From a virus (taxonomy: Duplodnaviria > Heunggongvirae > Uroviricota > Caudoviricetes), in the IMG/VR virus record IMGVR_UViG_3300042154_004306: a stretch of 64,000 nt of DNA; one strand, written 5' to 3'. The position numbers and the translations under genes were made by a program. Below are positions 21,320 through 40,672 of the stretch, piece after piece. Under the pieces are notes generated by a model. The model ran no database searches. It saw only the letters and a list, made by a program, of their open reading frames with translations, and had not been told where the DNA came from. Position 1 is the stretch's first letter. Each line of letters opens with the position of its first letter.

Positions 21320-21595
21320 ATGATAACCGTAACTGACTACTGGGCTCCATGGTGCGGCCCTTGCAAAACGCTAATGCCAACAATTGAAAAACTAGCAGAG
21401 GAATATAACGTTCCAGATAGCGAGGTTCAGATCAAAAAGGTGAACGTCGATGAAGACTCTGAAACTTCAGCCAAGGTCGGAATTCGTTCGATCCCTACTC
21501 TCGTATTTGAAAAGGATGGAGCTGAGGTTGAGCGTAGAAGCGGAATCTTACAGTATGCTAAAATTAAAGAAATAATCGAAAATCTAAAAGCCTAA
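21320..21595 (+). CDS. trx: thioredoxin
   Basis: 91 aa with WAPWCGPCK active site. Confidence 0.8.
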   Translation: MITVTDYWAPWCGPCKTLMPTIEKLAEEYNVPDSEVQIKKVNVDEDSETSAKVGIRSIPTLVFEKDGAEVERRSGILQYAKIKEIIENLKA

Positions 21596-22278
21596 TGCAA
21601 ATAACTTTCATATCTGACACTCACTGGCTGGTGAGAGACGCTCAAGCCTGTAGAGACATGAATGATCTCCTACCCGGCGGCCCAATCTTGGTGCACGCAG
21701 GGGATGTGAGCGGCAGAGGCACTGAATTTGAGATCAGAAAGTTTCTTGACTGGTTTAGTAAGTTGCCGTACACGCATAAAATCTTAATCTCAGGCAATCA
21801 TGACTTCTTTTTTGAAGTTGCCAAACCTGAGGAGGTTGAGGCCTTGATTGCAGAGTATCCTGGAATTACCTATCTAAACGATAGCGAAGTAACCGTTGAG
21901 GGCATAACGTTTTGGGGAAGCCCAATCACTCCGTTCTTTCATAATTGGGCATTCAATCGATATTCGGATGAAATTAAACCGCATTGGGACCTGATTCCAG
22001 AAGGAATTGATGTCCTGATAACTCACGGTCCACCAAAAGGAATACTTGATTTTACCGAGTATGATCGTGACCATGTTGGCTGCCCAACTCTATTGGAGAA
22101 GGTTAAACAGATAAAACCCAAAGTTCATGTCTTTGGCCACATTCATGAGGCTAGAGGTAAGGAAGAAATTGATGGAACAATTTTCATCAATGCCTCAATG
22201 GTTACTCTAAAATATGAGTTACGATATGAACCTCCATACATAATAGAAATTGAACCAAATTCTCAAAATTTAGTATAA
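21595..22278 (+). CDS. calcineurin-like metallophosphoesterase
   Basis: 227 aa. GDVSGRG, GNHDF and GHIHE motifs. Confidence 0.7.
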   Translation: MQITFISDTHWLVRDAQACRDMNDLLPGGPILVHAGDVSGRGTEFEIRKFLDWFSKLPYTHKILISGNHDFFFEVAKPEEVEALIAEYPGITYLNDSEVTVEGITFWGSPITPFFHNWAFNRYSDEIKPHWDLIPEGIDVLITHGPPKGILDFTEYDRDHVGCPTLLEKVKQIKPKVHVFGHIHEARGKEEIDGTIFINASMVTLKYELRYEPPYIIEIEPNSQNLV

Positions 22279-23572: not shown

Positions 23573-23657
23573 GGAGAGGTGGCAGAGCGGTTGAACGCGG
23601 CGGTCTTGAAAACCGTTTTAGGTAACACTAACGGGGGTTCGAATCCCTCCCTCTCCG
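23573..23657 (+). tRNA. tRNA-Ser (anticodon TGA), type II with long variable arm
   Basis: Acceptor ggagagg/cctctcc perfect; anticodon arm gcggt-cTTGAaaa-accgt; T-arm ggggg-ttcgaat-ccctc. Confidence 0.85.
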
Positions 23658-23680
23658 CAAAAATTAAGCAAAATGGAACT

Positions 23681-24681: not shown

Positions 24682-25371
24682 ATGATTAAAAACACGACGC
24701 CTTATTTAGGAAAGATCAGACTTAAGTTTGAAAAGTTTCCTCACTATTCAGGAAAAGATAAGCTGAATAAAATTCACCTAAACCTTGGATTCACCAAGTT
24801 GGTCAGCCGCATAACACCAGTCAGAGATGAGAACGGTTTTGTAGTAAACCCCGATTGTATTAACCTGATCCGAAAGAACACAGGGCTTAAGGTTGAAACT
24901 CACACGTTTGGTCCAAATGACGAGCATGAATTACCTAATTCATGCATGAACGCTGATGGACAGTACGTTGGCTCCATTGAAGAAGGTTGGTGGTATTACA
25001 ATAACGGGCTCAGATCAACTAAAGGTTCTCACCCTCATACCGCATGGAGCAAGGAGGCAAAGCAATGGATAGGATATTCTCATCGTGGTGCTTGTGCATT
25101 CGGTAAGGGTGATAAGTTATTCGATGCAAATTGGGTTCCAAATGATGATGAGCTGCTTGCTCTTGAAAAACACTACGTAAAACGCTTGGGAGAATTTCAA
25201 ATCGAATACGCCGACTGGTCAAAGAGCAGTTCCGAACATAAGGCCGAAGAATTCACTCTTAACTCATGGGCAGCAAGCCACATTCCTTTCAAGTTACGCG
25301 GAAGTAAAACGATTCATTCTTACGAAGATGCCTATAAAGCTGCCGTTAATTTTGCCAAATACATAGGTTAA
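24682..25371 (+). CDS. hypothetical protein
   Basis: 229 aa ORF. Confidence 0.45.
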   Translation: MIKNTTPYLGKIRLKFEKFPHYSGKDKLNKIHLNLGFTKLVSRITPVRDENGFVVNPDCINLIRKNTGLKVETHTFGPNDEHELPNSCMNADGQYVGSIEEGWWYYNNGLRSTKGSHPHTAWSKEAKQWIGYSHRGACAFGKGDKLFDANWVPNDDELLALEKHYVKRLGEFQIEYADWSKSSSEHKAEEFTLNSWAASHIPFKLRGSKTIHSYEDAYKAAVNFAKYIG

Positions 25372-27712: not shown

Positions 27713-27789
27713 TGATCTCGTAACTCAGCTGGTTAGAGTACCATACTTTTAATATGGGAGTCACAGGTTCGAATCCTGTCGGGATCACC
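27713..27789 (+). tRNA. tRNA-Lys (anticodon TTT), CCA encoded
   Basis: Acceptor gatctcg/cgggatc; D-arm actc-agctggtta-gagt; anticodon arm ccata-cTTTTaa-tatgg; T-arm acagg-ttcgaat-cctgt; 3' aCCA. Confidence 0.85.
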
Positions 27790-27801
27790 AAAGACAAAAT
27801 A

Positions 27802-27872
27802 CGCGGGTGTGGTGCAATGGTAGCATATCGGTCTCCAAAACCCTTGACGGGAGTTCGAATCTCTCCACCCGT
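27802..27872 (+). tRNA. tRNA-Trp (anticodon CCA), weak anticodon stem
   Basis: Acceptor gcgggtg/cacccgt; T-arm gggag-ttcgaat-ctctc; loop cTCCAaa; only 3 clean bp in the anticodon stem. Confidence 0.5.
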
Positions 27873-27973
27873 GCTCTAGATAGTTTTCAAAAGAAAACCA
27901 AACTTTGGATGTTATGGTATATTATTATTATTAATAACAAAGAGAGTCCTTTGACATATTGGAGATCGCAAAT

Positions 27974-28046
27974 TGTCCTTTAGCTCAATTGGCAGAGCAT
28001 CTGTTTTACATGCAGAGGGTTATGGGTTCGAATCCTACAGGGACAA
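27974..28046 (+). tRNA. tRNA-Val (anticodon TAC)
   Basis: Acceptor tgtcctt/agggaca (one G-T); D-arm gctc-aattggca-gagc; anticodon arm tctgt-ttTACat-gcaga; T-arm atggg-ttcgaat-cctac. Confidence 0.6.
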
Positions 28047-28096
28047 CAAATCTTGGGATTAATTACCCTAAGACTGGATGATTCGAAGCATCCGAT

Positions 28097-28191
28097 TGAT
28101 TATGGTGTAATGGTGCACACTGGCCCCGGAAAGTAAGCCTCACAGCTGAAATCAGGGCCGGGGGATTAAGGTTCGAATCCTTATTAGTCAG
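28097..28191 (+). tRNA. atypical tRNA-like gene with ~28-nt insertion in place of the anticodon loop
   Basis: Acceptor tgattat/ttagtca (6/7); D-arm gtgt-aatggtgc-acac; perfect T-arm taagg-ttcgaat-cctta. Between them a ggccc/gggcc stem encloses 28 nt (cggaaagtaagcctcacagctgaaatca). Confidence 0.3.
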
Positions 28192-28200
28192 CAAATATAT

Positions 28201-28273
28201 TGTGGGGTAGAGAAGTGGTCATCTCACAAGGCTCATAACCTTGAGATCAGGGGTTCGAATCCCTTATTCGCAA
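28201..28273 (+). tRNA. tRNA-Met or tRNA-Ile2 (anticodon CAT), acceptor stem rich in G-U pairs
   Basis: D-arm gaga-agtggtca-tctc; anticodon arm caagg-ctCATaa-ccttg; T-arm agggg-ttcgaat-ccctt; acceptor tgtgggg/attcgca gives 3 WC + 3 GU + 1 mismatch. Confidence 0.5.
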
Positions 28274-28278
28274 CGAAT

Positions 28279-28384
28279 GATTAGATGGACGTAATGAGGG
28301 ACGGCTCCCGAATCCCCAACTCGAAAGAGGTAAGGTCGTCTACCCCGTCTAGCACGGTATCCGGTTCGAGTCCGGCTCTAATCG
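28279..28384 (+). tRNA. long (~106 nt) tRNA-like gene, possibly type II or intron-containing
   Basis: Perfect 7-bp acceptor gattaga/tctaatc; T-arm ccgg-ttcgagt-ccgg. The interior could not be folded by eye into D/anticodon/variable arms. Confidence 0.3.
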
Positions 28385-28494
28385 CCCGGATTCATGTACG
28401 TCGAGCGCAAACCAATTGCTCTTCAGGTAGATTTACATGGATAAACAACCCGTCACGGTATGCTCTACGGGGCAGGAGTGAACTGAAGAGAAAC

Positions 28495-28571
28495 GGACTG
28501 GTAGTTCAGCTGGTTAGAATGCCGCCCTGTCACGGCGGAGGCCACATGTTCGAGTCCTGAAAGGTCCGCCA
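28495..28571 (+). tRNA. tRNA-Asp (anticodon GTC), CCA encoded, T-arm and acceptor imperfect
   Basis: 5' two-thirds nearly identical to bacterial tRNA-Asp (TAGTTCAGCTGGTTAGAAT, ccgcc-cTGTCAc-ggcgg). T-stem acatg/cctga and the last two acceptor pairs mismatch. Confidence 0.45.
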
Positions 28572-29009: not shown

Positions 29010-29678
29010 ATGATGAATGAATTCCAAAAGTACGCAATGAGCGAGCACGGTGTGTCATCGCTGAATTTGCATAATTATCAAAAACAAGTTGAAGCATCAA
29101 TGACGCCTTATATCCTAGAGGAACGCGAGTTACGCGTTACCCAAATGGACATTTTTTCCAGATTAATGCGCGATCGTATCTTATGGGTCGCGGGTCCGGT
29201 GAATGACTATATGTCAACCATCGTGCAGGCTCAACTAATGTTTCTAGACTCAGTTGATGGCAAGGACATTACCATGCACATTGACTCTCCAGGCGGATCG
29301 GTTAAATCAGGTCTCTCAATGGTCGATGTGATGGACTACATCAATGCAGACATAGTCACGGTTAATACTGGAATGGCAGCATCGATGGGGTCTGTTCTAC
29401 TAGGCGCAGGAACAAAGGGCAAGAGGTTTTCACTAAAGCACTCACGTACAATGCTACATCAATCAAGTGGAGGTTTTAGCGGAAATATTCAGGATGCTGA
29501 AGTTGACATGGAAGAATGGAAGAAGATCAATGATGAGCTCTTCATTCTGCTGGGCAAGTACTGCGGTAAAAAACCTGAACAGGTTAAGAAAGACGCAACT
29601 AGAGATTTTTGGTTGACTGCTGACGAAGCAGTTAAGTACGGTATAATTGATCAAGTAATCCTAAAGAAGGCTAAATAA
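29010..29678 (+). CDS. clpP: ClpP-family serine protease
   Basis: 222 aa. Ser (GMAASMGS) / His / Asp triad regions conserved; ILWVAGPVND ... HIDSPGGSV. Confidence 0.85.
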   Translation: MMNEFQKYAMSEHGVSSLNLHNYQKQVEASMTPYILEERELRVTQMDIFSRLMRDRILWVAGPVNDYMSTIVQAQLMFLDSVDGKDITMHIDSPGGSVKSGLSMVDVMDYINADIVTVNTGMAASMGSVLLGAGTKGKRFSLKHSRTMLHQSSGGFSGNIQDAEVDMEEWKKINDELFILLGKYCGKKPEQVKKDATRDFWLTADEAVKYGIIDQVILKKAK

Positions 29679-30094
29679 TGAGTAGAGTATTAATTCTCCT
29701 ACGTGGAGTTCCAGGTTCAGGCAAGAGCACCTTTGCCAATCACATGTGGTCAAGCGGAGTCGTGTTTGAAGCCGATAAATTCTTCTATGATGAGGACGGT
29801 AAATATCAATTCGACGGCTCTAAATTAAAAGAGGCCCATGAATGGTGTCGTCGATCAGTACAGGAGGCAATGGAACAGAACCACCTAAGCGCAGGTCAGC
29901 ACTATCCGGAAATTATTGTGTCAAACACATTCACACGAGAGTGGGAGATGCAGGCATACTTGGATTTAGCAAAGCAATTCGAATACAATGTAGTTTCTTT
30001 GATTGTTGAGAATCGACATGGTGGCAAGAACTTGCATGGAGTACCCGATGAGAAGGTACAGGAGATGAGAGCCCGATTTGAAGTTAAATTATGA
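29678..30094 (+). CDS. P-loop kinase resembling the kinase domain of T4 polynucleotide kinase (Pnk)
   Basis: 138 aa. LILLRGVPGSGKSTFANHM Walker A at the extreme N-terminus as in T4 Pnk; no phosphatase domain. Confidence 0.5.
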   Translation: MSRVLILLRGVPGSGKSTFANHMWSSGVVFEADKFFYDEDGKYQFDGSKLKEAHEWCRRSVQEAMEQNHLSAGQHYPEIIVSNTFTREWEMQAYLDLAKQFEYNVVSLIVENRHGGKNLHGVPDEKVQEMRARFEVKL

Positions 30095-30411
30095 GAATGG
30101 GCAAATCAACATTCAAAAGAATAGTAAAGGATTGGAATGAAGCTACTGCTGCTGAAGTCTGGGAAGGTATCAGAGATAACTTCACCTTTGGTTTTATTGG
30201 TGCAACTCTTGTCGTGTTCATTGCAACCAGAACGGATATTGCTGTACTATTCGGTTACCTTGCCTATTACTTTTACATGGGCACAATCGTGAATCGACCT
30301 AAATACGTAACCCACTTGGGCAAGCTGATAGTGTTTCCAATTCCTTCAGCTCTTGGAGCATTTACCGGTTACAAATTGTCGTATTCGATTATTCAACTAA
30401 TAACATCATGA
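30091..30411 (+). CDS. small membrane protein
   Basis: 106 aa, 2-3 TM helices. Confidence 0.4.
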   Translation: MRMGKSTFKRIVKDWNEATAAEVWEGIRDNFTFGFIGATLVVFIATRTDIAVLFGYLAYYFYMGTIVNRPKYVTHLGKLIVFPIPSALGAFTGYKLSYSIIQLITS

Positions 30412-31484
30412 TCTTAACTAGAGAAATCATACAGCCTTATATCGATAAAGGATTAGTGGAAGCAAAGGATCATCCAACGCTTCCACTCACCATTTATAAT
30501 TACTCAAGAGAGTGCCAGTTTGAAAAGAGTTGGGATCAGGTGACTCTACAATGTCGAGGGCTAATCCTTGATCATGAGAACCGGTTGGTCGCTAGAGGTT
30601 TCAATAAATTCTTTAATTACGAAGAGGTTGAGAACACTGGCCAGATTCCAGTGAATGATAAATACGTTTACGTGCAGGAGAAAATGGACGGCTCTTTAGG
30701 AATCCTATTTCATTACAATGGTGAGTGGCACATGGCAACTCGCGGATCATTTGAATCTGAGCAAGCAAAAGCCGGTCTGGAGATTCTAAAAAAGAAGTAC
30801 GATCTTGGAAAGTTTCATTCAACTGTTTGTTACATTTGCGAGATTATCTATCCTGAGAACCGAATTGTAGTTGACTACTCTGAAGAAAAGATTACCTTCT
30901 TATCTGCTGTCATGGAAGGCCGTGAAGTAAATTGGGGAACGGCTAAAGCACTATTTCACTCATCTGGGATCCGTGAAGAGGATATTGTGTGGACGGTGAT
31001 GGATACTATTACTGAGAATATTTTTAAACGATACAAGAACCTTAACGAATCGGATAAGGAAGGTTTCGTCCTACGATTCCATCCATCAAATTACAGAGTT
31101 AAGATCAAGTTCGATGAGTATGTCAGATTACACCGACTGTTGACCAATTTTTCAAATATCGATATTTGGGAATGCTTGAGAAATGGAGATGACCTAAGCG
31201 AGTACATTGAGAGCGTGCCAGACGAATTTGATTCATGGGTCAGGGGCTGGATCAGGGCTCTTACGTTCGCGTTCGTCATGAAGGAACTTGAGGCTAAAAA
31301 GATTTTTGCCGAGTTATTAAGCCAAGATATTAATACCAAGAAGGAGGATGCCTTGTGGATTCAAGCAAATTGCCCAAAGGTGTACCAAGGTCTGGTGTTC
31401 TCAATGTTACAGGGCAAAGACTACAGTCAAACAGTTTGGCGAATGATTCGCCCTGATTATCAAAAACCTTTCTGGAACCGTTAA
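30408..31484 (+). CDS. RNA ligase, Rnl1-like
   Basis: 358 aa. Nucleotidyltransferase motif I YVQEKMDGSLG resembles T4 Rnl1 KEDGSL; size comparable to T4 Rnl1. Confidence 0.6.
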   Translation: MILTREIIQPYIDKGLVEAKDHPTLPLTIYNYSRECQFEKSWDQVTLQCRGLILDHENRLVARGFNKFFNYEEVENTGQIPVNDKYVYVQEKMDGSLGILFHYNGEWHMATRGSFESEQAKAGLEILKKKYDLGKFHSTVCYICEIIYPENRIVVDYSEEKITFLSAVMEGREVNWGTAKALFHSSGIREEDIVWTVMDTITENIFKRYKNLNESDKEGFVLRFHPSNYRVKIKFDEYVRLHRLLTNFSNIDIWECLRNGDDLSEYIESVPDEFDSWVRGWIRALTFAFVMKELEAKKIFAELLSQDINTKKEDALWIQANCPKVYQGLVFSMLQGKDYSQTVWRMIRPDYQKPFWNR

Positions 31485-31521: not shown

Positions 31522-32424
31522 ATGCGTAAATTACTTGTGACCGGTGGCAATGGGCTAGTCGGGTCAGCGATAGCTGCTGAAGTTAAGATCGGTAGAGAAT
31601 TTGACTTAACTAGCACCGCTCAAACCCAAAAGGCTTTTGAACTCCATAAACCAACTCATGTTATACACTGTGCTGGTAAGGTGGGAGGCCTTGGCGGAAA
31701 CATGAACTATAAAGGCGAATACTTTTACGATAACTTGATGATTAACACAAACGTCATTGAGGAGGCACGTAAAGCCGGCGTTACTAATCTAGTTGCTTTT
31801 CTCTCCACTTGCGTTTTCCCGGACTCAATTGAGTATCCGTTGACGGAAAAGAAGATTCATCTTGGTGAACCTCACTCATCTAACTATCCCTATGCATACG
31901 CAAAGAGGATGTCAGACATTCAGATCAGAGCGTATCGCGAACAGTACGGCGTGAGGTACACATCAGTAATTCCATGCAACATATACGGACCAAACGATAA
32001 TTTTTCGCTGGACCATGGGCATGTCATTCCGATGTTGATGCACAAGATCTATAAAGCTCAGCAAAACAATAGCGAGCTCTCTATTTGGGGAGATGGATCG
32101 CCGCTTAGGGAATTCATATACGCAAAGGACGTTGCTCGACTTGCTGAATGGGCAGTAGATAACTACGATGAGGCTGAGCCAATAGTATTCAGCACGTCAG
32201 AAGAAATTTCAATTGCGGAAGTTGTTGAGCTTCTAGTTGAGGCATTTAATTTTAAGGGCGCAGTTAGATTCGATAAGTCAAAACCAAACGGCCAACACCG
32301 AAAACCTTCAGACAATTCAAAGTTGAAGAGTTACCTACCTGATTTTAAATTCACACCGATTGAGGAAGGCCTCAAGGAGACAGTAAAATGGTTTATAGAC
32401 AATTATGAAACAGCAAGAAAATAA
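31522..32424 (+). CDS. fcl: GDP-L-fucose synthase (GDP-4-keto-6-deoxy-D-mannose 3,5-epimerase/4-reductase)
   Basis: 300 aa. VTGGNGLVGSAI Rossmann; Ser/Tyr/Lys SDR residues (YAYAKRM); overall Fcl-like. Confidence 0.85.
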   Translation: MRKLLVTGGNGLVGSAIAAEVKIGREFDLTSTAQTQKAFELHKPTHVIHCAGKVGGLGGNMNYKGEYFYDNLMINTNVIEEARKAGVTNLVAFLSTCVFPDSIEYPLTEKKIHLGEPHSSNYPYAYAKRMSDIQIRAYREQYGVRYTSVIPCNIYGPNDNFSLDHGHVIPMLMHKIYKAQQNNSELSIWGDGSPLREFIYAKDVARLAEWAVDNYDEAEPIVFSTSEEISIAEVVELLVEAFNFKGAVRFDKSKPNGQHRKPSDNSKLKSYLPDFKFTPIEEGLKETVKWFIDNYETARK

Positions 32425-33394
32425 AAAAGCACTAATCACCGGAATAAACGGACAGGACGGCTCGTACTTAGCCGAGTTTTTGTTAGACAAGGGTTACGAA
32501 GTACACGGCACCCTAAAAAGAAATTCAATCTCTGAGAATCAAACCGCTCGATTGACAGATGATGTTTACACAAAAGTCAAGCTACACTATGCTGACGTTA
32601 CTGACTTATCTTCGTTAATCAGAGTTGTTCAGGAAATCATGCCAGCCGAGATCTATAACTTAGCTGCACAGTCGCATGTTCGAATTTCGTTTGATCAACC
32701 TGTCTATACTGCGCATGCAACCGGCATAAGCACATTAAACCTATTGGAGGTCGTACGGCTAATTAAACCGGATGCTAGAGTTTATCAAGCCTCTTCGTCT
32801 GAGATGTTCGGAAACTCGATTGACCAGGACGGGTACCAGAGAGAAACTACTCAAATGACGCCTGTCTCTCCTTACGGTTGCGCTAAAGTTTTCTCTTATA
32901 ACATTGCAAGAAATTACAGAAACTCTTATGGAATGTACGTGTCAAACGGAATCCTATTCAATCACGAGTCTCCAAGACGTGGTACGAACTTCGTTACTAA
33001 TAAAGTATGCAAGGAGGCAGTTAAGATTAAATTGGGGCTCTCGACTGAACTTAGGCTTGGTAATTTATCTGCAACAAGAGATTGGGGCCATGCCAAGGAT
33101 TACGTTAGAGCAATGTGGGAAATCCTACAGTTAAAAGAACCCGGTGATTATGTTTGTGCAACTGGAGTATCTCACTCAGTTAGGGATCTATGTGAATACG
33201 TCTTTTCTAAACTAGACTTGAATTGGAAAGACTGGGTTAAAACTGATGAGAAGTTTCTTAGACCTGAAGAGCTACATGATCTAAAGGGAGATCCCAGTAA
33301 ACTGGTCAGAGCCACCGGCTGGTCTCATGATTACACGTTTGAAACGATGCTAGATGAAATGATTCAGCACTGGTTAGACGTATATGAACGCTAG
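32405..33394 (+). CDS. gmd: GDP-mannose 4,6-dehydratase
   Basis: 329 aa. ALITGINGQDGSYLAEFLLDKGYEVHG N-terminus; YGCAKVFSYN (YxxxK) catalytic motif. Confidence 0.9.
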   Translation: MKQQENKKALITGINGQDGSYLAEFLLDKGYEVHGTLKRNSISENQTARLTDDVYTKVKLHYADVTDLSSLIRVVQEIMPAEIYNLAAQSHVRISFDQPVYTAHATGISTLNLLEVVRLIKPDARVYQASSSEMFGNSIDQDGYQRETTQMTPVSPYGCAKVFSYNIARNYRNSYGMYVSNGILFNHESPRRGTNFVTNKVCKEAVKIKLGLSTELRLGNLSATRDWGHAKDYVRAMWEILQLKEPGDYVCATGVSHSVRDLCEYVFSKLDLNWKDWVKTDEKFLRPEELHDLKGDPSKLVRATGWSHDYTFETMLDEMIQHWLDVYER

Positions 33395-33439
33395 CAGGCC
33401 CGGCGCTCTTCTAATAAATAATCGAAAGCACCCAGACAC

Positions 33440-34276
33440 ATGCCAACTCATAAACCGTATGCAATTAACCTAGGTTCAGCAATCACAGGTACTACTCAAA
33501 CTGGTAACTTTGCGGTTGGGACTGGGACACCAACCACAATCTGGTCAAATCGACCAGGCTCAGTTACTTGGTGGATGGGTCCGGACGAGGATGTTGGTTA
33601 CTTAATCGTGAAGCAAGATGGCGCAAATCCTTCTTTCTGGCGATCCACGGCTAAGACTGATCCAGCTTTTCTAAGTCTTGCTAATAATCTAGCTAGGCGA
33701 TTCGGTACAAGCCCATTTGCATCGGCCGCAGCTGCTTACACTTGGTTAACAACAAACGGCTATTACACGACGTTTCAGCCGTATGCGGCAGGTCTCTACA
33801 AGACCACTTTCTCTGGATACTTTGCCGATAACGTTAGTTTCTTTGCGACCGCGACTCCACAAGCATTCGGCGCAAATCAAGCAACCTCAGTACAAGCTAC
33901 GACTATTTCAGAACCTGCAACCAATGACGGTGAAGTATTTAGCTGTCAGTGGTTAGGCTATTTTAAACCGACGACCACTGAAACTTACACATTCTATACG
34001 TCAAGCGACGATGCATCTTACATGTGGATCGGTGCAAACGCTCAAACTGGATTCACAACAACAAATGCAACCGTTAATAATGGAAGTCTTCATGGAACGC
34101 AGGAGCGATCCGGCTCAATCGATTTAACTGCAGGTACGTATTACCCGGTTAGAATCCAATTTGGCGAAAACACTGGAGGAGACGTCATGACCTTTAATTA
34201 TTCTACTCCCAACATTGCCAAGACAACCACTGTCACAGGCCTAGTATTCTACAACACCACAACGAACGGCCATTAA
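33440..34276 (+). CDS. PA14-domain protein (carbohydrate-binding; putative virion adhesin)
   Basis: 278 aa. GEVFSCQWLGYFKPTTTETYTFYTSSDDASYMWIG ... GTYYPVRIQFGENTGG is a typical PA14 signature. Confidence 0.55.
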   Translation: MPTHKPYAINLGSAITGTTQTGNFAVGTGTPTTIWSNRPGSVTWWMGPDEDVGYLIVKQDGANPSFWRSTAKTDPAFLSLANNLARRFGTSPFASAAAAYTWLTTNGYYTTFQPYAAGLYKTTFSGYFADNVSFFATATPQAFGANQATSVQATTISEPATNDGEVFSCQWLGYFKPTTTETYTFYTSSDDASYMWIGANAQTGFTTTNATVNNGSLHGTQERSGSIDLTAGTYYPVRIQFGENTGGDVMTFNYSTPNIAKTTTVTGLVFYNTTTNGH

Positions 34277-34307
34277 TCTGGCCAAGTTTGGGTATATTAA
34301 ATTAATA

Positions 34308-34517
34308 ATGAAATCAGATATCAAGGTTAGAATTGAACAGCTATCTTTTCAATCAGGTGGCGAGTACATGGACGTTCAGGTTCGTGATGGCTACGTTGAT
34401 ATCACGGTTGGCGGAGTTGAGAATGATAAATTCTCAGTCACACTCGCTGACTGGAAGATCATAACTAAAAGAATATTTGACCTAATACAACAAGAACAAA
34501 ATCTAGAAAAAAAATGA
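34308..34517 (+). CDS. hypothetical protein
   Basis: 69 aa ORF. Confidence 0.35.
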   Translation: MKSDIKVRIEQLSFQSGGEYMDVQVRDGYVDITVGGVENDKFSVTLADWKIITKRIFDLIQQEQNLEKK

Positions 34518-34903
34518 AGAACGTACAACACTCAATAGATGAGGCTCGATTAATCGTCGAGAGCTTTGATCCAGGAGGCGGCATGACCGTTGGATTCGAT
34601 GAGGAGACTTACACACTCACCGCCGACCAAATGATGAAGATCGCTAGGGCGCTATACTTAGCGGACTGTGCGATTGAGGAAAGAACTGAAGTGATCATGC
34701 AACTTATAAAATTAGCAGAGCTCTATCAGGCCAGAGCGCATGAGGTCGAAGATATTAGCCTTGACCTACTCACCTGTCCATTGTGGAACTTCGTGAAGTT
34801 AGTCAAATTAGAAAAGAGAATACACGAAGCTATTTTACGATACAATTCTGAGCCTCAGCTTGAGGAGGCCCTTAATAAACTAGAGTCAATTTTTCAAAGG
34901 TAG
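34514..34903 (+). CDS. hypothetical protein
   Basis: 129 aa ORF. Confidence 0.45.
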   Translation: MKNVQHSIDEARLIVESFDPGGGMTVGFDEETYTLTADQMMKIARALYLADCAIEERTEVIMQLIKLAELYQARAHEVEDISLDLLTCPLWNFVKLVKLEKRIHEAILRYNSEPQLEEALNKLESIFQR

Positions 34904-34974
34904 TTAATGACCAGTTAACAATGATCAAGCCGGTACATGGAGTATGAAAAATCAATAAATAACAATAAAACGTT

Positions 34975-37155
34975 ATGAGAAAAATTACTCAACTTATGGT
35001 ATTGATGCTATCGATACTAACTATCCCCAAGTGTTTTGCACAAAGTGTAACAATCGGCCCAATCTCTGGTGCTTCGTCCTATCAAACAGGTCCCATCTAT
35101 CAAAGGGTTACCGCTCAGAGCTCAAATTATGCTAAGTCCGCTTATCTTTACACCAAAGATGAATTAAACATTCCCTCTGGATCAACCATTACAAAAGTTG
35201 AATGGTTAAAAGCAAATAATGCGACTGCTACCGGTAACAATAAATTCAAGGTTATCATTTCCAATACACCTAAAACAACAATGGGTGTATCTGCCAACTA
35301 TTCGGACTTTTTACAAAACTCACAAACAGTTTTCTCAACTGATAAACTAGGGTTACCAGCCACAACTAATTATTGGATACCTTGCCAATTCTCATCTGGG
35401 TTTATATATGAAGGTGGAAGCTTATCTATACTAACCGATTGGGCTAAAGCTGGAACATGTACTGGCCCATTAAACTTTTATCAAAAACCTTCTGTTGGAA
35501 AGTCTATGCAGGTAATCAGTCCAGCACTAATACCACAAGATGCTTTGCTACTACCAACATCTGGTTCGGTAAGACCCACAATTAGAATAACATACACAGC
35601 ACCTATTATGTGTTCCACGATGCCTAGTCCAGGCTTGGCTGTCTCTACGAATTCGGTTGTTTGTCCAAACCAACAATTCACACTTTCACTAACTAATAAA
35701 ATAGCCGAAGGTGGTATATCCTATGACTGGCAGAAATCAAATGCTTTATCTTTTGATAGCGCCGCTTCTATTGGTAATGGTTCATCAGTAATTACATCAC
35801 AAACAGCCGAGACATATTATAGATGTAAGGTTAGCTGTGGTAGTCTTGTTACTTGGACAAATATTATAAAAATACCAATTAACCCTTTTTACAATTGCTA
35901 TTGCCCAAGTACGGCTCAATCCCCAACAGATGAGGAAATAACACATTTCAAATTAGGTGATTTAGATAAAAAATCCAGTGTTGGTACTCCTGTTATATTT
36001 GGGGTTAGACCTGGAGACTGTGGTGATTTAGCACCCGGTGAAGGATCAAAAAAATCTTTATACTCAAACTATAGAGGGGATAAACCCACAGATATTAAAA
36101 TTGGTTCCACTGTTCCCTTTATTGTTGAAACATCATTATGTGGCACTAATGGAGCTTATAACCGTGCCGCTATTTTTATAGATGCTAACCGAAATGGTGA
36201 ATTTGAGGGTAGTGAACAAATTTATCTATCACCTGTTGTTTATGGTCCAACTGCCAGTGTTAGAAAAGGTTTTATTAAAATCCCTATCACATCACAACCA
36301 GGTATAACAGGAGTTAGAGTTATTGTGAACGAAACACAAAACGCAATTTCATCATGTGGATCTTATGCTTTTGGAGAAACTGAGGACTACACAATCAACT
36401 TAGTTAGCCATATTAACTGTGATTCTATTCCCACAATAGTAAGCTCTGATACTAAAGTTTGTAAAGGCAGTAGTTTATTACTTTACCCATCTATAACAGG
36501 TGATAGTTATCAATGGATTAAAAATGGTCAAGTGGTAAGTGGATCTACTGATTTTTTTTATGAACCAGTTGTATCTGAACCTACTACTTTTATTTGTAAA
36601 GTTAAATGTGGTGATGTATTAAAAGAAACAGAGTCAATTTTAATTGATTTAAATAAGTTTACTGATTGTTATTGTGAGTCTGGTGCTGGTGGTCAGGCTG
36701 ATGAAGAAATTATAGACTTCACGTTAAATGGAGTAAAGGTTGGTCTAGATTGTGGTAAACAAGCACCCGGTGCTAAATCCTACTTAAATGAATACTCAGA
36801 CTTTAAACCAAACGGTTCATTTACCGAACTAAAAAAGGGTAATACATACTCATTTGATATTTATGATAATGACTGTGATACACCAGCCTCGCCATATTAT
36901 ACAGCGTCAGTTGGTGGTTGGATAGACTTTAATCAAAATGGGGTGTTTGATAATAACGAAAAAATTCTACAAGTTGATGGTGTAACCGGACCTAAACACA
37001 TAACCGGAACCATAACAATACCATTAAATGCTATATCGGGGGTTACCTGTCTTAGATTAGTATTAGGTGGAGGTTTATATGGGGTTTACCTAACACCGTG
37101 TTCTAAATTTCAATCAGGTGAAACAGAAGATCACTTAGTTACAATAACCGATTAA
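34975..37155 (+). CDS. large secreted Cys-rich protein with two GEVED-like C-terminal-type modules
   Basis: 726 aa, signal peptide. Repeated module ending FGETEDYTINLV and QSGETEDHLVTITD (GEVED-like). CAATAAATAA at 34953-34962 upstream. Confidence 0.5.
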   Translation: MRKITQLMVLMLSILTIPKCFAQSVTIGPISGASSYQTGPIYQRVTAQSSNYAKSAYLYTKDELNIPSGSTITKVEWLKANNATATGNNKFKVIISNTPKTTMGVSANYSDFLQNSQTVFSTDKLGLPATTNYWIPCQFSSGFIYEGGSLSILTDWAKAGTCTGPLNFYQKPSVGKSMQVISPALIPQDALLLPTSGSVRPTIRITYTAPIMCSTMPSPGLAVSTNSVVCPNQQFTLSLTNKIAEGGISYDWQKSNALSFDSAASIGNGSSVITSQTAETYYRCKVSCGSLVTWTNIIKIPINPFYNCYCPSTAQSPTDEEITHFKLGDLDKKSSVGTPVIFGVRPGDCGDLAPGEGSKKSLYSNYRGDKPTDIKIGSTVPFIVETSLCGTNGAYNRAAIFIDANRNGEFEGSEQIYLSPVVYGPTASVRKGFIKIPITSQPGITGVRVIVNETQNAISSCGSYAFGETEDYTINLVSHINCDSIPTIVSSDTKVCKGSSLLLYPSITGDSYQWIKNGQVVSGSTDFFYEPVVSEPTTFICKVKCGDVLKETESILIDLNKFTDCYCESGAGGQADEEIIDFTLNGVKVGLDCGKQAPGAKSYLNEYSDFKPNGSFTELKKGNTYSFDIYDNDCDTPASPYYTASVGGWIDFNQNGVFDNNEKILQVDGVTGPKHITGTITIPLNAISGVTCLRLVLGGGLYGVYLTPCSKFQSGETEDHLVTITD

Positions 37156-37185: not shown

Positions 37186-37213
37186 GAAAGCAATCGAAAG
37201 ATTGCTTTTTTTG
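37186..37213 (+). terminator. rho-independent terminator
   Basis: gaaagcaatc-gaaa-gattgcttt followed by ttttttg. Confidence 0.6.
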
Positions 37214-37246: not shown

Positions 37247-37915
37247 ATGAAAATTACACTACAACCACATCAGCGTATATGGTTTACATCAGATACTCAC
37301 TATAAACACTCAAATATCTGTAGGGGAACCTCTAATTGGCCTGAGTCCAGCAAGACTAGGGATTTTGATACCTTAGAGCAGATGAATGAGACCGTAATCA
37401 ATAACATCAATCACCTAGTTAGGGAAGATGATATTCTATTCCACTTGGGAGACTGGTCATTCGGAGGATACGAGAATATAGCAGAGTTTAGGGAGAGAAT
37501 CCTGTGCAAGAACATTCATCTACTATTAGGAAATCACGACCATCACATCGAGAGGGACAAGGGAGGAATCCGAAAGTTATTCAGTTCGGTACACGATTAC
37601 TTGAGACTTGAGCTTACTGTTCCAAACGAACCTAATTCAATAAACTCTGGCGAGGTCATTAAAAAGACATTTGTCATGTGTCATTACCCAATTGCAAGCT
37701 GGCACGACATGAACCGTGGAGTCATTCACCTACATGGTCACGTTCACTTGGGTCCGGAGAATAAACTACATGATGGCAAGGCAATGGATGTCGGTATGGA
37801 CGGTAATGATCTAAACCCTTACTCTCTACAGGAGATCGCAAAGATCATGAGGGACCGCCCGGTTAGGTGTTTAGTTTTGCCAAACGATCATCACGAAACA
37901 AATGAAGGCAGATAG
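37247..37915 (+). CDS. calcineurin-like metallophosphoesterase (second copy)
   Basis: 222 aa. FTSDTHY, GDW ... GNHDHH, GHVH motifs. Confidence 0.65.
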   Translation: MKITLQPHQRIWFTSDTHYKHSNICRGTSNWPESSKTRDFDTLEQMNETVINNINHLVREDDILFHLGDWSFGGYENIAEFRERILCKNIHLLLGNHDHHIERDKGGIRKLFSSVHDYLRLELTVPNEPNSINSGEVIKKTFVMCHYPIASWHDMNRGVIHLHGHVHLGPENKLHDGKAMDVGMDGNDLNPYSLQEIAKIMRDRPVRCLVLPNDHHETNEGR

Positions 37916-37933
37916 TTGGTATATTAAAGTAAT

Positions 37934-38671
37934 ATGAAACCATTTTTTAAATTTTACGAGGTAGGAGGCAAGGTCAGGGACGAAATCTTGGGCCTGCAGT
38001 CAAAGGACGTTGATTTCGTTGCCGTTCCCAAGGAGTCTTTAATTGAAGAGTTTCCGGAAGCAGAAGACCTTTTCAAAGTGCTAGTTGACTACTTGACTCG
38101 TGAGAAGTTTCAAATCTTTTTAGTGACCGCTGACTGTTATACGATCAGGGCTAAATTTCCAGATGGTCACAAGTACCAGGGAGTTGCGGATTTCGTGATG
38201 GCTAGAAAAGAGGTTGGATACTTGCCTTTTACAAGAACACCGATCGTGAAGCCTGGAACTCTATTCGATGATTTACAAAGACGTGACTTCACGCTCAATG
38301 CAATCGCAAAGGACGAGGATGGAGCACTGATTGATCCATTCAACGGAATTGAAGATTTGAAAAATGGAGTTCTAAGAACACCTTTACCTTGCGAAATTAC
38401 CTTTAAGGACGATCCTTTGAGAATCTTAAGAGCGATCAGATTCATGGTCACTAAGGACTTTGTAATCACAGCCGACATGCATCAGCACATCAAGCACTTC
38501 GATTATGAAGTCTTCATGCCGGTCGTCTCAACTGAGAGAATCCGAGAAGAACTGCTTAAATGTTTTAAGCACGATACTGCAGAAACTCTCAGAGTATTGA
38601 TGAGGTATCCTGCACTATTTGAATACATTTTTATGACAAAGATTTGGTTGAAACCAACAATGGAGGAATAA
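37934..38671 (+). CDS. tRNA nucleotidyltransferase / poly(A) polymerase head-domain protein (CCA-adding-type)
   Basis: 245 aa. FYEVGGKVRDEILGLQSKDVDFV matches the GG(A/K)VRD ... DxD class II NTase motif of CCA-adding enzymes. Confidence 0.6.
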   Translation: MKPFFKFYEVGGKVRDEILGLQSKDVDFVAVPKESLIEEFPEAEDLFKVLVDYLTREKFQIFLVTADCYTIRAKFPDGHKYQGVADFVMARKEVGYLPFTRTPIVKPGTLFDDLQRRDFTLNAIAKDEDGALIDPFNGIEDLKNGVLRTPLPCEITFKDDPLRILRAIRFMVTKDFVITADMHQHIKHFDYEVFMPVVSTERIREELLKCFKHDTAETLRVLMRYPALFEYIFMTKIWLKPTMEE

Positions 38672-38672
38672 T

Positions 38673-38909
38673 ATGAAAAAGATAATAATTTTATTATTCG
38701 TAGCTTCAGTTTTTGCAAGCTGCGGAAAACCGGCAAAATACACGATTAACAGCGAAGCCGGTAAGTACTGGACAAATTCCTATACAAAGGACGCGAACGG
38801 CTGTATTGTGTTCAAGCACGAATGCGGTTGCGGCGGCGGAGATCCGCAAGTCGTAACAGTTTGTGGAACCTATACAATAATCAAAAACTCAGGCCATGAG
38901 AAAGAGTAA
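38673..38909 (+). CDS. small lipoprotein
   Basis: 78 aa, LFVASVFASCGK lipobox. Confidence 0.4.
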   Translation: MKKIIILLFVASVFASCGKPAKYTINSEAGKYWTNSYTKDANGCIVFKHECGCGGGDPQVVTVCGTYTIIKNSGHEKE

Positions 38910-39198
38910 TCACGGACTTCACACTAGCCTGGGTCAACTTAAGATCGATCTTGTTCTGAGGCACCAATGGGAGAAGGAAAATGATCATAATTGGTGGGAC
39001 AAACAAAAGTGGAAGACTGAGAGACACTTGGGAATTTGGTGGAAGACTTACAGAACAATAGGTTCAACCAAAGGTTTGTCTAAGTGGTTATGGAAGGACA
39101 CACACTCACCAAACCTAATGATAGGAGTTGACGTCATTTGGTTCAAATTTTGGATTGACCTCGGTTGGGGTACCTTAATTTTAAAAATAAAAGATTAA
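38896..39198 (+). CDS. hypothetical Trp-rich protein
   Basis: 100 aa ORF. Confidence 0.35.
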   Translation: MRKSNHGLHTSLGQLKIDLVLRHQWEKENDHNWWDKQKWKTERHLGIWWKTYRTIGSTKGLSKWLWKDTHSPNLMIGVDVIWFKFWIDLGWGTLILKIKD

Positions 39199-39201
39199 AA
39201 A

Positions 39202-40275
39202 ATGGAAAGAAAATTAGCAAGCATTCAAAGAGTCCGCGCAATCAAACCGATTGAGGGAGCGGATGCAATCGAAGTAGTTCAGATCAATAGCTGGAACGTA
39301 GTTGCAAAAAAAGGTGAATTCACAGAGGGCGACCTCTGCGTTTATTTTGAAATAGATTCGTTTCTACCGATGGAGAAGGACTTTGAATTCCTAAGAAAGT
39401 CTTCATATAAAAAGATGGGAGACTTAGAGGGATTCAGATTAAAAACCATTAGGCTTAGAGGGCAGGTTTCGCAAGGGCTGTGTTTACCATTAAGTGTCCT
39501 GGAAAAGGACGATGAAATGAAGATTGGAATCAGCAAACAGCCTTGGGGGGATCAGCTTCAGCTTGGACCCTATGATGATGCAATAGTTATCGAAGAAGGC
39601 ACTGACGTTACTGAGTACATGTGCGTGCTTAAATACGAGCCTCCCATTCCAGCAGAATTGGCAGGTAAGGTTAAAGGTATGTTCCCATCATTCATTCATA
39701 AGACTGATGAGGACCGTGTACAAAACTTAACCGACCATTATGAAAGTTGGAAAGATCAGGCTTTTTACGTAACTGAGAAATTGGACGGTTCGTCCGCAAC
39801 TTTCTACCTGAAGGACGGAGAGTTTGGAGCGTGTTCACGTAATTTGGAACTGCTGGAGACTGATGAAAATACGTTTTGGAAAGTCGCTAGAGAAATGGAG
39901 ATTAAGCCTAAATTAGAGTCAGTTGGCTATAATATTTGCATTCAAGGAGAATTGGTAGGCGAGGGAATTCAAAAGAACCCTTATAAATTAAGAGGACAGA
40001 CTGTGAAGTTCTTTAATGCTTTTAATATCGACACTCAAGAATACTTGGGATTTGAAGAGTTTACTAAACTAGTCTTGGGATTTGGTTTACCAATTGTTCC
40101 AATAGTTGAAACCAAATTCGCTCTGCCTGATACAATAGATCAATTACTCGAGTACGCTGATTCAAAATCAAGTCTTAATCCAAATTTTGATAGGGAGGGC
40201 GTTGTCATCAGAAGTCTTGATCGAAAAATTTCGTTCAAGGTAATTTCAAATAAATTTTTACTGAATGAAGCATAA
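39202..40275 (+). CDS. second ATP-dependent RNA ligase-like nucleotidyltransferase
   Basis: 357 aa. Motif I YVTEKLDGSSATFYL (KxDGS with no Arg, as in RNA ligases) preceded by an N-terminal ~150 aa domain. Confidence 0.5.
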   Translation: MERKLASIQRVRAIKPIEGADAIEVVQINSWNVVAKKGEFTEGDLCVYFEIDSFLPMEKDFEFLRKSSYKKMGDLEGFRLKTIRLRGQVSQGLCLPLSVLEKDDEMKIGISKQPWGDQLQLGPYDDAIVIEEGTDVTEYMCVLKYEPPIPAELAGKVKGMFPSFIHKTDEDRVQNLTDHYESWKDQAFYVTEKLDGSSATFYLKDGEFGACSRNLELLETDENTFWKVAREMEIKPKLESVGYNICIQGELVGEGIQKNPYKLRGQTVKFFNAFNIDTQEYLGFEEFTKLVLGFGLPIVPIVETKFALPDTIDQLLEYADSKSSLNPNFDREGVVIRSLDRKISFKVISNKFLLNEA

Positions 40276-40672
40276 AATATACTTAGACGACATTAGGACC
40301 CCAATCGATAAGAGCTGGATCGTAGTTAGAAGCTACGAGGAGTTTGTTGAGAAAATAACTGAACTTGGATTAGAGAATATTGAACTAATTTCGCTGGATC
40401 ACGATTTAGGAGATAGCGCAATGAGGGAATGGCATAAAAACGTTTACCATAACTACGAATTGAATTACGATAATATTACCGAGAAGACTGGTATGGACTG
40501 TACTAAGTGGATGGTTGAACAATGGTTAGACGGAGCATCGGTAGTTAAGGTTGTTATACATTCAGCTAATGCAATCGGATCAGCAAATATGATGGGCTAC
40601 ATTAATAATTACCGCCATATCAATAGATTACCTCAAGATTGTATAAGAGTTCAGTGGCCGCACACCGTCTAA
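40265..40672 (+). CDS. hypothetical protein
   Basis: 135 aa ORF. Confidence 0.45.
   Translation: MKHKIYLDDIRTPIDKSWIVVRSYEEFVEKITELGLENIELISLDHDLGDSAMREWHKNVYHNYELNYDNITEKTGMDCTKWMVEQWLDGASVVKVVIHSANAIGSANMMGYINNYRHINRLPQDCIRVQWPHTV

Follow-up and report, generated by a model that had tools for sequence, protein, structure and literature searches.

RNA repair in the anti-PrrC pathway of phage T4 involves Pnkp and the RNA ligase Rnl1 (with Rnl2 as a further ligase), and bacterial Pnkp/Hen1 repair draws on kinase, metallophosphoesterase (MPE) and ligase domains, which are combined in Pnkp of Clostridium thermocellum (CthPnkp). For jumbo and medium-sized phages, kits made up of RNA ligases, a kinase, HAD, calcineurin-like or HD phosphatases, the cyclic-phosphate-processing receiver-like protein cREC and a CCA-adding enzyme have been inferred computationally by Iyer, Burroughs, Aravind and co-workers, who listed the CCA-adding enzymes as accessory (PMC7824862, PMC9503650). 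Here we describe a candidate kit of this kind in a 64,000-nucleotide stretch of DNA from a virus of the Caudoviricetes (IMG/VR record IMGVR_UViG_3300042154_004306), the whole of which is referred to below as the window. Two parts of the window, at positions 29678–31484 and 37247–40672, encode a P-loop kinase, two RNA ligases, an MPE, a cREC protein and a half-size tRNA nucleotidyltransferase (NTase). We put at roughly 65% the probability that these parts together constitute a "heal-and-seal" RNA repair kit that rescues tRNAs cut by metal-independent ribonucleases.

The gene set resembles the T4 pathway in that it pairs a kinase and predicted 3′ healing with two ligases, one of the Rnl1 type and one that would seal nicks, in a large tRNA-bearing phage, and the pairing of an Rnl1-type with an Rnl5-family ligase parallels that of Rnl1 with Rnl2 in T4. 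It differs from T4 in that the kinase (138 aa, matching AAA_33 only) lacks the fused HAD phosphatase of a bifunctional Pnkp, so that healing would apparently be supplied in trans by the MPE and cREC, in that the second ligase belongs to Rnl5 instead of Rnl2, and in that a CCA-type NTase has been added. Unlike the window kinase, the protein at another phage locus (L003) carries both AAA_33 and HAD_PNKP. The combination of activities is the same as in bacterial Pnkp/Hen1, but the phage version consists of separate, usually adjacent genes. In the cREC-centred neighbourhoods described earlier (PMC7824862; PMC9503650), cREC is likewise linked in operons to RNA ligases and a nucleotide kinase and, in some cases, to a calcineurin-like phosphoesterase; the window block differs from these in that sirtuin, MazG, 2H and Nudix genes are absent from it, in that the ligase partner is of the Rnl5 type and in that the kit is split by ~5.7 kb. 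The parts list had already been drawn up from phage genomics; the kit of the window is a fairly complete yet ordinary example, and conceptually it adds little.

Predicted healing and sealing enzymes and their linkage in other phages

The 37247–40672 region contains six open reading frames (ORFs) on the + strand (Table 1), and the distances between them (18, 1, –14, 3 and –11 nt) indicate that they form a single tightly packed block. A sequence-only reading of this DNA, made by a model that ran no database searches, had proposed three consecutive tRNA-repair genes here, namely an MPE, a minimal CCA-adding-type NTase and a second RNA ligase. All three ORFs were recovered with the positions and lengths it gave, and with profile matches far beyond chance. 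They are not consecutive, however, as two further ORFs stand between the NTase and ligase genes, and the block does not end with the ligase: the cREC gene, which that reading had omitted, overlaps the ligase stop codon.

The ligase of the block belongs to the Rnl5 (DraRnl/NgrRnl) family of ATP-dependent RNA ligases. Its N-terminal part matches the PHA02142 OB-fold (PF21189, residues 5–97, E = 9.5e-41) and its C-terminal part the RNA_ligase family (PF09414, residues 188–348, E = 6.6e-26), with a further match to phrog_968. Both domains were aligned with those of NgrRnl (PDB 5cot, E = 1.1e-73), and the protein passes the equivalog model TIGR02306 RNA_lig_DRB0094 (199.7 bits, vs a cut-off of 151.15), which identifies it as an RNA ligase and not as the DNA ligase that had been considered as an alternative. 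The "extra N-terminal domain" that had caught the eye in the translation is real and corresponds to the OB domain that is the signature of the Rnl5 family; in NgrRnl, this domain is required for lysine adenylylation (PMC7261155). A KLDGSS motif at residues 193–198 puts the predicted adenylylation site at Lys193. The active-site residues of NgrRnl are all kept in the window ligase (R3, D52, K144, T168, R172, K193, D195, R213, E250, F271, E332 and K346), and among them K193, D195, E250, E332, K346, R172, R3, D52 and K144 correspond to NgrRnl K170, D172, E227, E312, K326, R149, R4, D53 and K121, respectively, which make the ATP and two-metal contacts of the NgrRnl Michaelis complex. The protein thus has the same OB plus nucleotidyltransferase architecture as DraRnl and NgrRnl, without a C-terminal appendage, but differs from them in being phage-encoded, in having an inter-domain linker that is ~24 residues longer than that of NgrRnl, and in being part of an operon with cREC, MPE and NTase genes.

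Characterised Rnl5 enzymes seal 3′-OH/5′-PO4 nicks in duplexes with an RNA 3′-OH strand and have little activity on single strands; loop breaks are sealed by Rnl1 enzymes (PMC4408790). By homology, the window Rnl5 ligase would need 3′-OH/5′-PO4 nicks as well. A preference for 2′-PO4 or cyclic-phosphate ends, as had been suggested for it, is unlikely because the ligase belongs to this nick-sealing family, whose members use 3′-OH/5′-PO4 ends in duplex (PMC4408790, PMC7261155).

The MPE matches both the general Metallophos family (PF00149, E = 1.5e-8) and phrog_547 ("phosphoesterase", E = 6e-46). All five MPE motifs (DxH, GD, GNH[D/E], H and GHxH) are present, with D16, H18, G68, D69, G95, N96, H97, D98, H146, G164, H165 and H167 as invariant residues, and the AlphaFold2 model of the protein has the MPE fold. 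Among the best 120 homologues, no fusion of the MPE to a kinase or a ligase was found, all of them being stand-alone proteins of 177–236 aa (mostly ~216 aa). A second MPE of a different family (phrog_1649; PF00149, E = 3.7e-14) is encoded at 21595–22278 on the + strand.

The cREC protein scores 81.7 bits against PF20274 (E = 6e-23; cut-off 27 bits) and also matches phrog_1479. Across 57 distinct homologues, conservation reaches at least 95% at each of D8, D9, D45, H46, D47, T75, G76, H99, S100 and N102, so that the acidic residues D8, D9, D45 and D47 are retained, and the gene is linked to an RNA ligase gene and not to a histidine kinase. No solved relatives could be detected by sequence. Proteins of this family have been predicted to open 2′,3′-cyclic phosphates, and their operonic linkage to RNA ligases has been reported (PMC7824862, PMC9503650). 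The window cREC clearly belongs to the same block as the MPE, the NTase and the ligase. In two close relatives of the window (L005 and L075), the cREC gene has been swapped for a version of 55–56% identity, although the flanking genes are 92–95% identical.

The second part of the gene set lies upstream, and comprises the kinase, a predicted membrane protein and the Rnl1-type ligase. Apart from AAA_33, the kinase matches phrog_2071 (E = 7e-41) and phrog_505 ("polynucleotide kinase", E = 5e-8), and it would serve as the RNA 5′-OH kinase of the kit. The ligase scores 67.5 bits on TIGR02308, below the equivalog cut-off of 242, and is expected to seal breaks in RNA loops. The 106-aa membrane protein encoded between them is kept, at 40–91% identity, in many loci that also have the kinase or the MPE.

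Whether such genes travel together was examined in viral contigs, using the MPE, the NTase and the Rnl5 ligase as search anchors and ClpP, the neighbour of the kinase in the window, as a control anchor. Loci were dereplicated at 90% nucleotide identity of the anchor gene, and homologues of the window proteins were sought within 10 kb. A kinase-only Pnk was found near 32 of the 46 MPE homologues, vs 7 of the 38 ClpP control loci (Fisher p = 2.5e-6); an OB-domain RNA ligase was likewise near 32/46, vs 3/38 in the control (p = 4e-9), and cREC near 20/46, vs 3/38 (p = 2e-4). Kinase homologues follow immediately 3′ of the MPE gene in many phages, and in 10 loci no more than 63 bp separate the MPE stop from the start of the kinase gene. 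Around the Rnl5 homologues, MPE (19/50), cREC (16/50) and Rnl1 (15/50) genes were enriched, and Rnl1 homologues are contiguous with Rnl5 in other phages. Two Pfam-checked loci illustrate the pattern: in L180, a co-directional cREC–MPE–x–x–kinase–x–x–Rnl5–x–Rnl1 series occupies 5.7 kb, and in L100 an 18-tRNA array is followed by MPE–kinase–x–OB ligase–x–cREC. As the gene order is shuffled across lineages, the association points to functional linkage and not to inherited synteny. The MPE loci also carry 4.4 tRNA genes per 10 kb, vs 2.6 for the control anchor, itself a neighbour of a tRNA array.

This context indicates that both parts of the gene set belong to a single system, split in the window by ~5.7 kb, as the sequence-only reading had proposed in treating the 29678–31484 and 37247–40275 genes as one RNA end-repair set. 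It also strongly backs the proposal that the MPE supplies the 3′ step that the truncated Pnk lacks: the MPE is likely the 3′-end-healing partner of the kinase-only Pnk, which would make it the RNA 3′-phosphatase of the kit and possibly its 2′,3′-cyclic phosphodiesterase as well.

Table 1. Positions of the principal features in the window (position 1 is its first nucleotide).
Feature	Position	Strand	Remarks
tRNA-Ser	23573–23658		Separate from the array
Phage tRNA array	27714–28571	+	Lys, Trp, Val, Met and Asp tRNAs plus two atypical tRNA-like genes; 1.1 kb 5′ of the kinase gene
P-loop kinase, 138 aa	29678–30094	+	Stand-alone, Pnk-kinase-like, no phosphatase domain; PF13671 AAA_33, E = 4.8e-13
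Predicted membrane protein, 106 aa	30091–30411	+	Between the kinase and Rnl1 genes
Rnl1-type (T4 RnlA-like) RNA ligase	30408–31484	+	PF09511, E = 1.3e-19; phrog_562, E = 6e-60
Terminator-like hairpin	37186–37209	+	10-bp stem with a T-run behind it; lies in the 91-nt gap 5′ of the block; consensus match only
Calcineurin-like metallophosphoesterase (MPE), 222 aa	37247–37915	+	aq_1665-like / phrog_547 subfamily
Class II tRNA nucleotidyltransferase (NTase), CCA-adding type, 245 aa	37934–38671	+	Head and neck domains only; no body, tail or HD domain
78-aa ORF	38673–38909	+	Signal peptide and lipobox-like motif (FASCG); lipoprotein-like
100-aa Trp/Lys-rich ORF	38896–39198	+	Between the NTase and ligase genes
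Rnl5-family (DraRnl/NgrRnl) ATP-dependent RNA ligase, 357 aa	39202–40275	+	OB domain (residues 1–98), linker, nucleotidyltransferase domain
cREC (cyclic-phosphate-processing receiver-like), 135 aa	40265–40672	+	Overlaps the ligase stop codon by 11 nt

A half-size class II tRNA nucleotidyltransferase

The NTase matches the PolyA_pol head domain (PF01743, E = 1.8e-18) and phrog_24229 ("tRNA nucleotidyltransferase", E = 2e-58), a profile that is itself 245 positions long. Residues 8–29 contain YEVGGKVRDEILGLQSKDVDFV, and motifs A to E are invariant among 50 family members (GGxxRD; D25-x-D27; R116-R117-D118; D134...G138..L142; D159-D160-P-L-R163; E201-R202...E206). The invariant residues include G11, G12, R15, D16, D25, D27, R116, R117, D118, D134, G138, D159, D160, R163, E201, R202 and E206. 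The head domain is thus represented by D25, D27, D86/E93 and R116-R117-D118, and the neck domain by the Asp/Arg pair of motif D and by motif E, with the first residue of motif D being D where E is usual.

The AlphaFold2 model (pLDDT 90, pTM 0.82) led to the same assignment. In a Foldseek search at E ≤ 0.001, 46 of the 48 matches were class II tRNA nucleotidyltransferases (CCA-, A- or CC-adding) or bacterial poly(A) polymerases, with TM scores of 0.58–0.71 when normalised to the query and 0.35–0.49 when normalised to the target. The other two were weak matches to FAM46 (query-normalised TM 0.38), and the first CD-NTase appeared at rank 50 (TM 0.28). The identification as a class II core therefore holds, since all catalytic motifs are present, and a CD-NTase or minimal polymerase-beta type, which had been named as the alternative, does not fit.

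As had also been noticed from the translation alone, the protein is far shorter than bacterial CCA enzymes. It covers positions 2–203 of the 409-position E. coli-type Cca profile, the alignment ending ahead of the HD domain, and according to both profile and Foldseek comparisons it stops after the neck, without the body and tail domains, through which the acceptor and T helices are recognised in full-length enzymes (PMC3925840). The search returned more than 7,000 homologues. Since the best of them are nearly all of 240–250 aa (115 of the best 120, at 66–95% identity, the other five being 272–277 aa), the length of 245 aa characterises the family and does not reflect a truncation. The family is mostly phage or metagenomic and was seen in phages of Cellulophaga, Microbacterium, Arthrobacter and Synechococcus; a biochemical study of the short form was not found in the searchable literature.

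Compared with the class II enzymes of E. coli, B. stearothermophilus, T. maritima and Planococcus, and with the A-adding enzyme of A. aeolicus, the NTase shares the head and neck, motifs A to E, the DxD carboxylates, the RRD motif and the D/R base-reading pair, and its predicted fold superposes on theirs. It differs from them in ending ~35 residues past motif E, so that the body, tail and HD phosphohydrolase domains are missing, in reading DDPLR instead of EDxxR at motif D, in a longer segment between motifs A and B, and in a conserved "LWLKPT" tail. This C-terminal tail, (L/I)-W-L-K-P-T-x-E, spans residues 236–245; W238, K240, P241 and T242 do not vary among 50 close homologues, and the tail is still recognisable in proteins of Microbacterium, Cellulophaga and Synechococcus phages, with its final residues predicted to be disordered. 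The tail could be a docking or RNA-binding element that offsets the absent body and tail domains.

The NTase gene is not specifically tied to the other repair genes. It was found near 7 of the 46 MPE and 10 of the 50 Rnl5 homologues, vs 5 of the 38 control loci, which is not significant; in the reverse direction, Rnl5 was weakly enriched near the NTase (11/39, vs 3/38 in the control; p = 0.02). Of the near-complete tRNA end-repair system that the sequence-only reading had drawn, with CCA restoration plus two ligases, the linked repair set and its ligases are therefore borne out by the context, while the link of the NTase to the kit is weak.

A housekeeping role for the NTase accordingly has to be weighed, in which it would be a maturation enzyme that adds CCA to the phage tRNAs, either alongside or in place of the host enzyme, and lies inside the repair operon by chance in this lineage; we give this slightly less than even odds. 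CCA is not encoded in four of the six tRNA genes of the window (Ser, Trp, Val and Met, as opposed to Lys and Asp), and only 55/594, 15/111 and 71/262 of the predicted tRNAs at related loci carry a terminal CCA (~90% without), which means that phage tRNAs need CCA addition. Their maturation accounts for the gene just as well as repair does. Moreover, the NTase gene shows no significant association with MPE, cREC or kinase genes relative to the control, standing alone in 23 of 39 loci, and the short NTase has been placed among translation genes in surveys of huge phages (PMC7162821). On the other hand, the host presumably owns a CCA-adding enzyme, and NTase genes are not near tRNA arrays either, with 0.81 tRNA per 10 kb, the lowest density of all anchors. 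They are, besides, found recurrently beside end-healing genes. In addition to the Rnl5 signal, the closest public homologue (61% identity) lies two genes 5′ of a T4-type Pnkp (kinase plus HAD_PNKP) in human-gut phage MT835470, an MPE is adjacent in 7 of 80 loci, and in cyanophage S-CBWM1 an MPE gene directly precedes the short NTase gene, with 21 tRNAs directly 3′. As maturation and repair are the same chemistry, the two roles are not mutually exclusive. In MT835470, a 462-aa ORF adjoining the NTase gene was screened as a possible RNA ligase and gave no Pfam match.

The proximity of MPE and NTase genes could also be read as a "split" CCA repair enzyme, in which the MPE stands in for the HD domain of E. 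coli Cca. The 18-nt gap between the two genes in the window and the S-CBWM1 arrangement speak for this idea, but an MPE of either subfamily lies within 1.5 kb in just 7/80 NTase loci, and the S-CBWM1 MPE is of a different family (phrog_1649, like that at 21595–22278 in the window), so that we did not adopt it as a general rule. Likewise, the gene 5′ of the NTase in Cellulophaga phage phi17:2, considered as a further MPE homologue, turned out not to be homologous, the MPE of this phage being encoded elsewhere in its genome.

A proposed heal-and-seal pathway and competing explanations

The families, their intact catalytic residues and the linkage of MPE, kinase, OB-ligase and cREC genes beside tRNA arrays fit a pathway whose substrates, activities and order of steps we infer as follows. 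Metal-independent ribonucleases would leave 2′,3′-cyclic-phosphate and 5′-OH ends at the break. The cyclic phosphate would be opened by cREC and/or the MPE, and the remaining 2′ or 3′ phosphate would be taken off by the MPE to yield a 3′-OH, while the 5′-OH would be phosphorylated by the stand-alone P-loop kinase. The two ATP-dependent ligases would then have complementary preferences, with the Rnl1-type enzyme sealing single-stranded loop breaks, for instance in the anticodon loop, and the Rnl5 enzyme sealing 3′-OH/5′-PO4 nicks within base-paired RNA. The NTase, finally, would add or restore the 3′-terminal CCA on phage tRNAs and on any 3′-trimmed tRNA. The tRNAs of the nearby array are candidate substrates.

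Several points weigh against this pathway. A host nuclease for the kit to counteract, be it PrrC, RloC or a CCA-trimming enzyme as the sequence-only reading had inferred, is an assumption. cREC has been described as uncharacterised (PMC7824862, PMC9503650) and the physiological substrates of Rnl5 enzymes as not known (PMC4408790), and the activities attributed to the MPE subfamily, cREC, the short NTase and phage Rnl5 are all predictions. For the MPE in particular, the nearest solved structure is that of a protein without known function, and a specific sequence or structural kinship with a proven RNA-end phosphatase (CthPnkp, lambda phosphatase) was not found: in structure comparison, the RNA phosphatase domain of CthPnkp was no nearer to the MPE than generic metallophosphoesterases. 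Given the second MPE of the window, the phosphatase role might moreover be shared or misassigned. The co-occurrence counts carry no correction for phylogeny, and, the weak Rnl5 signal aside, NTase loci show no enrichment for repair genes, with 23/39 of them having none within 10 kb.

It has been proposed that cREC acts on either 2′,3′-cyclic RNA ends or cyclic ADP-ribose derivatives, and calcineurin-like enzymes such as T5 A1 have been put forward as signal-degrading phosphodiesterases (PMC7824862, PMC9503650). The MPE and cREC might thus degrade host immune signals (cyclic nucleotides or cyclic ADP-ribose derivatives) or small phosphoesters instead of acting on RNA ends. The structural neighbours of the MPE do include the small-molecule phosphodiesterases LpxH, MJ0936 and ApaH, and an ORF of the window (24682–25371) encodes a Tad6 (Thoeris inhibitor) domain. 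However, NAD/ADP-ribose enzymes (sirtuin, Macro, Nudix) were not seen within the block, and the two genes are recurrently and tightly linked to a Pnk-like kinase and RNA ligases beside tRNA arrays, with cREC overlapping the ligase stop codon. We consider signal degradation unlikely.

We consider it somewhat less probable still that the Rnl5 ligase, possibly together with the MPE and the kinase, acts on targets other than tRNA, such as RNA:DNA hybrids or RNA-patched DNA nicks, or nicks in rRNA or mRNA duplexes. NgrRnl and DraRnl accept a DNA 5′-PO4 strand, loss of DraRnl radiosensitises Deinococcus, and the physiological substrates of these enzymes are, as mentioned, not known (PMC4408790, PMC5397189). 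Against this, the Rnl5/OB-ligase genes sit with kinase, MPE and cREC genes next to tRNA arrays, and in Microbacterium phage Cece such a ligase gene lies, along with RtcB, within the tRNA array. In addition, end-healing partners are needed solely for RNase-type (cyclic phosphate) breaks.

No better supported is a different tailing activity for the NTase, either as a poly(A)/poly(C) polymerase or as an RlaP-like restorer of nucleotides at break sites prior to ligation. In favour of this, the same catalytic core is found in class II CCA-adding enzymes and in bacterial poly(A) polymerases, the domains for binding of the acceptor and T arms of tRNA are missing (PMC3925840), and the gene lies between those of an end-healing enzyme and a ligase. 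The protein also reaches no NCBIfam equivalog cut-off (its best CCA score of 107 bits compares with 290 for NF009814), but this shortfall is expected because it is of half length. In direct comparison, it scores higher with the NCBIfam CCA models (107 and 100 bits) than with the PcnB models (84 and 57 bits), and higher with E. coli Cca (94 bits, 37% identity) than with PcnB (70 bits, 30% identity). Its nucleotide-selecting residues D160 and R163 are invariant, and its sequence is unrelated at the stretch aligned to "VGRRFRLAHV" of PcnB, which we take to be a poly(A) polymerase signature. The NTase thus appears closer to Cca than to PcnB, though CCA specificity is beyond proof from sequence alone, and another tailing activity is improbable.

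Phage setting, neighbouring features and tRNA-like elements

The window has nearly all of its ORFs on the + strand, and its gene content includes T4-type topoisomerase II subunits, PRPP synthetase, ClpP, a tyrosine recombinase, a helicase and a six-member tRNA set. A DNA-level search against isolated phages found no similar phage, and the closest relatives are IMG/VR metagenomic contigs of 50–270 kb, from which we conclude that the window derives from a large uncultured phage. The nearest isolates are Flavobacterium phage immuto by the MPE gene (60% identity) and Cellulophaga phages phi17:2 and phi4:1 by the NTase gene (47% identity), and going by their hosts we would guess at a Bacteroidota host.

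The ~5.7 kb that separate the kinase/Rnl1 pair from the MPE block (31522–37155, + strand) consist of unrelated genes, an arrangement shared with the closest relatives. Their products include a 726-aa secreted repeat protein and, judging from their translations, two candidate NAD-dependent sugar epimerases/dehydratases. The terminator-like hairpin that precedes the block may mark the upstream edge of its transcription unit, with the qualification that a hairpin scan of the region returned 12 sites, vs 8.1 ± 3.0 in shuffled sequence, and was thus not above expectation. A sigma-70 promoter scan was uninformative (41 sites, vs 34.8 ± 5.3 expected).

Neither of the two small ORFs between the NTase and ligase genes gave any match in Pfam, PHROG and NCBIfam searches. 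The 78-aa ORF is intact at 73–92% identity in three close relatives (L004/L164, L005/L136 and L075/L165). The 100-aa ORF has 88–90% identity in close relatives and 51%, with in-frame indels, in L090, where it is likewise flanked by the CCA and Rnl5 genes. In the close relatives L005 (10735–11314) and L075 (10735–11933), an extra 0.6–1.2 kb is present between the NTase gene and the 78-aa ORF, which indicates that this junction tolerates insertions. The Tad6-domain ORF (type I Thoeris inhibitor; PF25188, E = 1e-20; + strand), just 5′ of the tRNA array, is a candidate anti-defence gene.

Two atypical elements occur within the tRNA array. The first (28097–28192, + strand) matches the whole Rfam tRNA model with 27.2 bits (gathering score 29) and has a 31-nt insertion in the anticodon loop; ARAGORN in intron mode reads it as tRNA-Phe(GAA) with a 21-nt intron, the G at position 33 being atypical. 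Its homologues (L141, 4222–4300; L103, 6597–6675; L250, 6446–6548) have near-identical acceptor, D and T arms and unrelated anticodon arms, with total lengths of 79, 96 and 103 nt within this group. The second (28278–28384, + strand) is a conserved RNA of ~107 nt with a tRNA-type T-loop (GGTTCGAGTCC), and in L256 five base pairs of its acceptor-like stem have changed in a compensatory manner. It gave nothing at E ≤ 1 against Rfam, and an ORF that overlaps it (28285–28560) is probably spurious. Short tRNA introns as a general trait were considered and rejected, as ARAGORN intron mode flags 56 of 1361 tRNA calls at scattered positions and lengths that are mostly noise-like.

Possible interpretations of these elements are tRNAs with introns, which would have to be cut and religated, decoys for anticodon nucleases, or a role of another kind. 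That the kit itself (cREC, MPE, kinase, both ligases and NTase), in addition to or even more than undoing damage inflicted by the host, processes them, with the insertion excised, the halves ligated and CCA added, is a long shot, although, if true, it would represent protein-catalysed tRNA splicing in a bacterial virus.

As regards the RNA repair kit, the window provides a compact and nearly complete gene set for RNA end-healing, sealing and 3′-end rebuilding in an uncultured large phage. For the aq_1665-like MPE family, which is abundant in phages and for which a structure has been solved, the comparative data point to a candidate role as the trans-acting 3′-phosphatase partner of kinase-only Pnk. 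More broadly, the locus brings together four families that are biochemically blank and cheap to test: the half-size head-and-neck NTases with their more than 7,000 homologues, cREC, phage Rnl5 and this MPE family.

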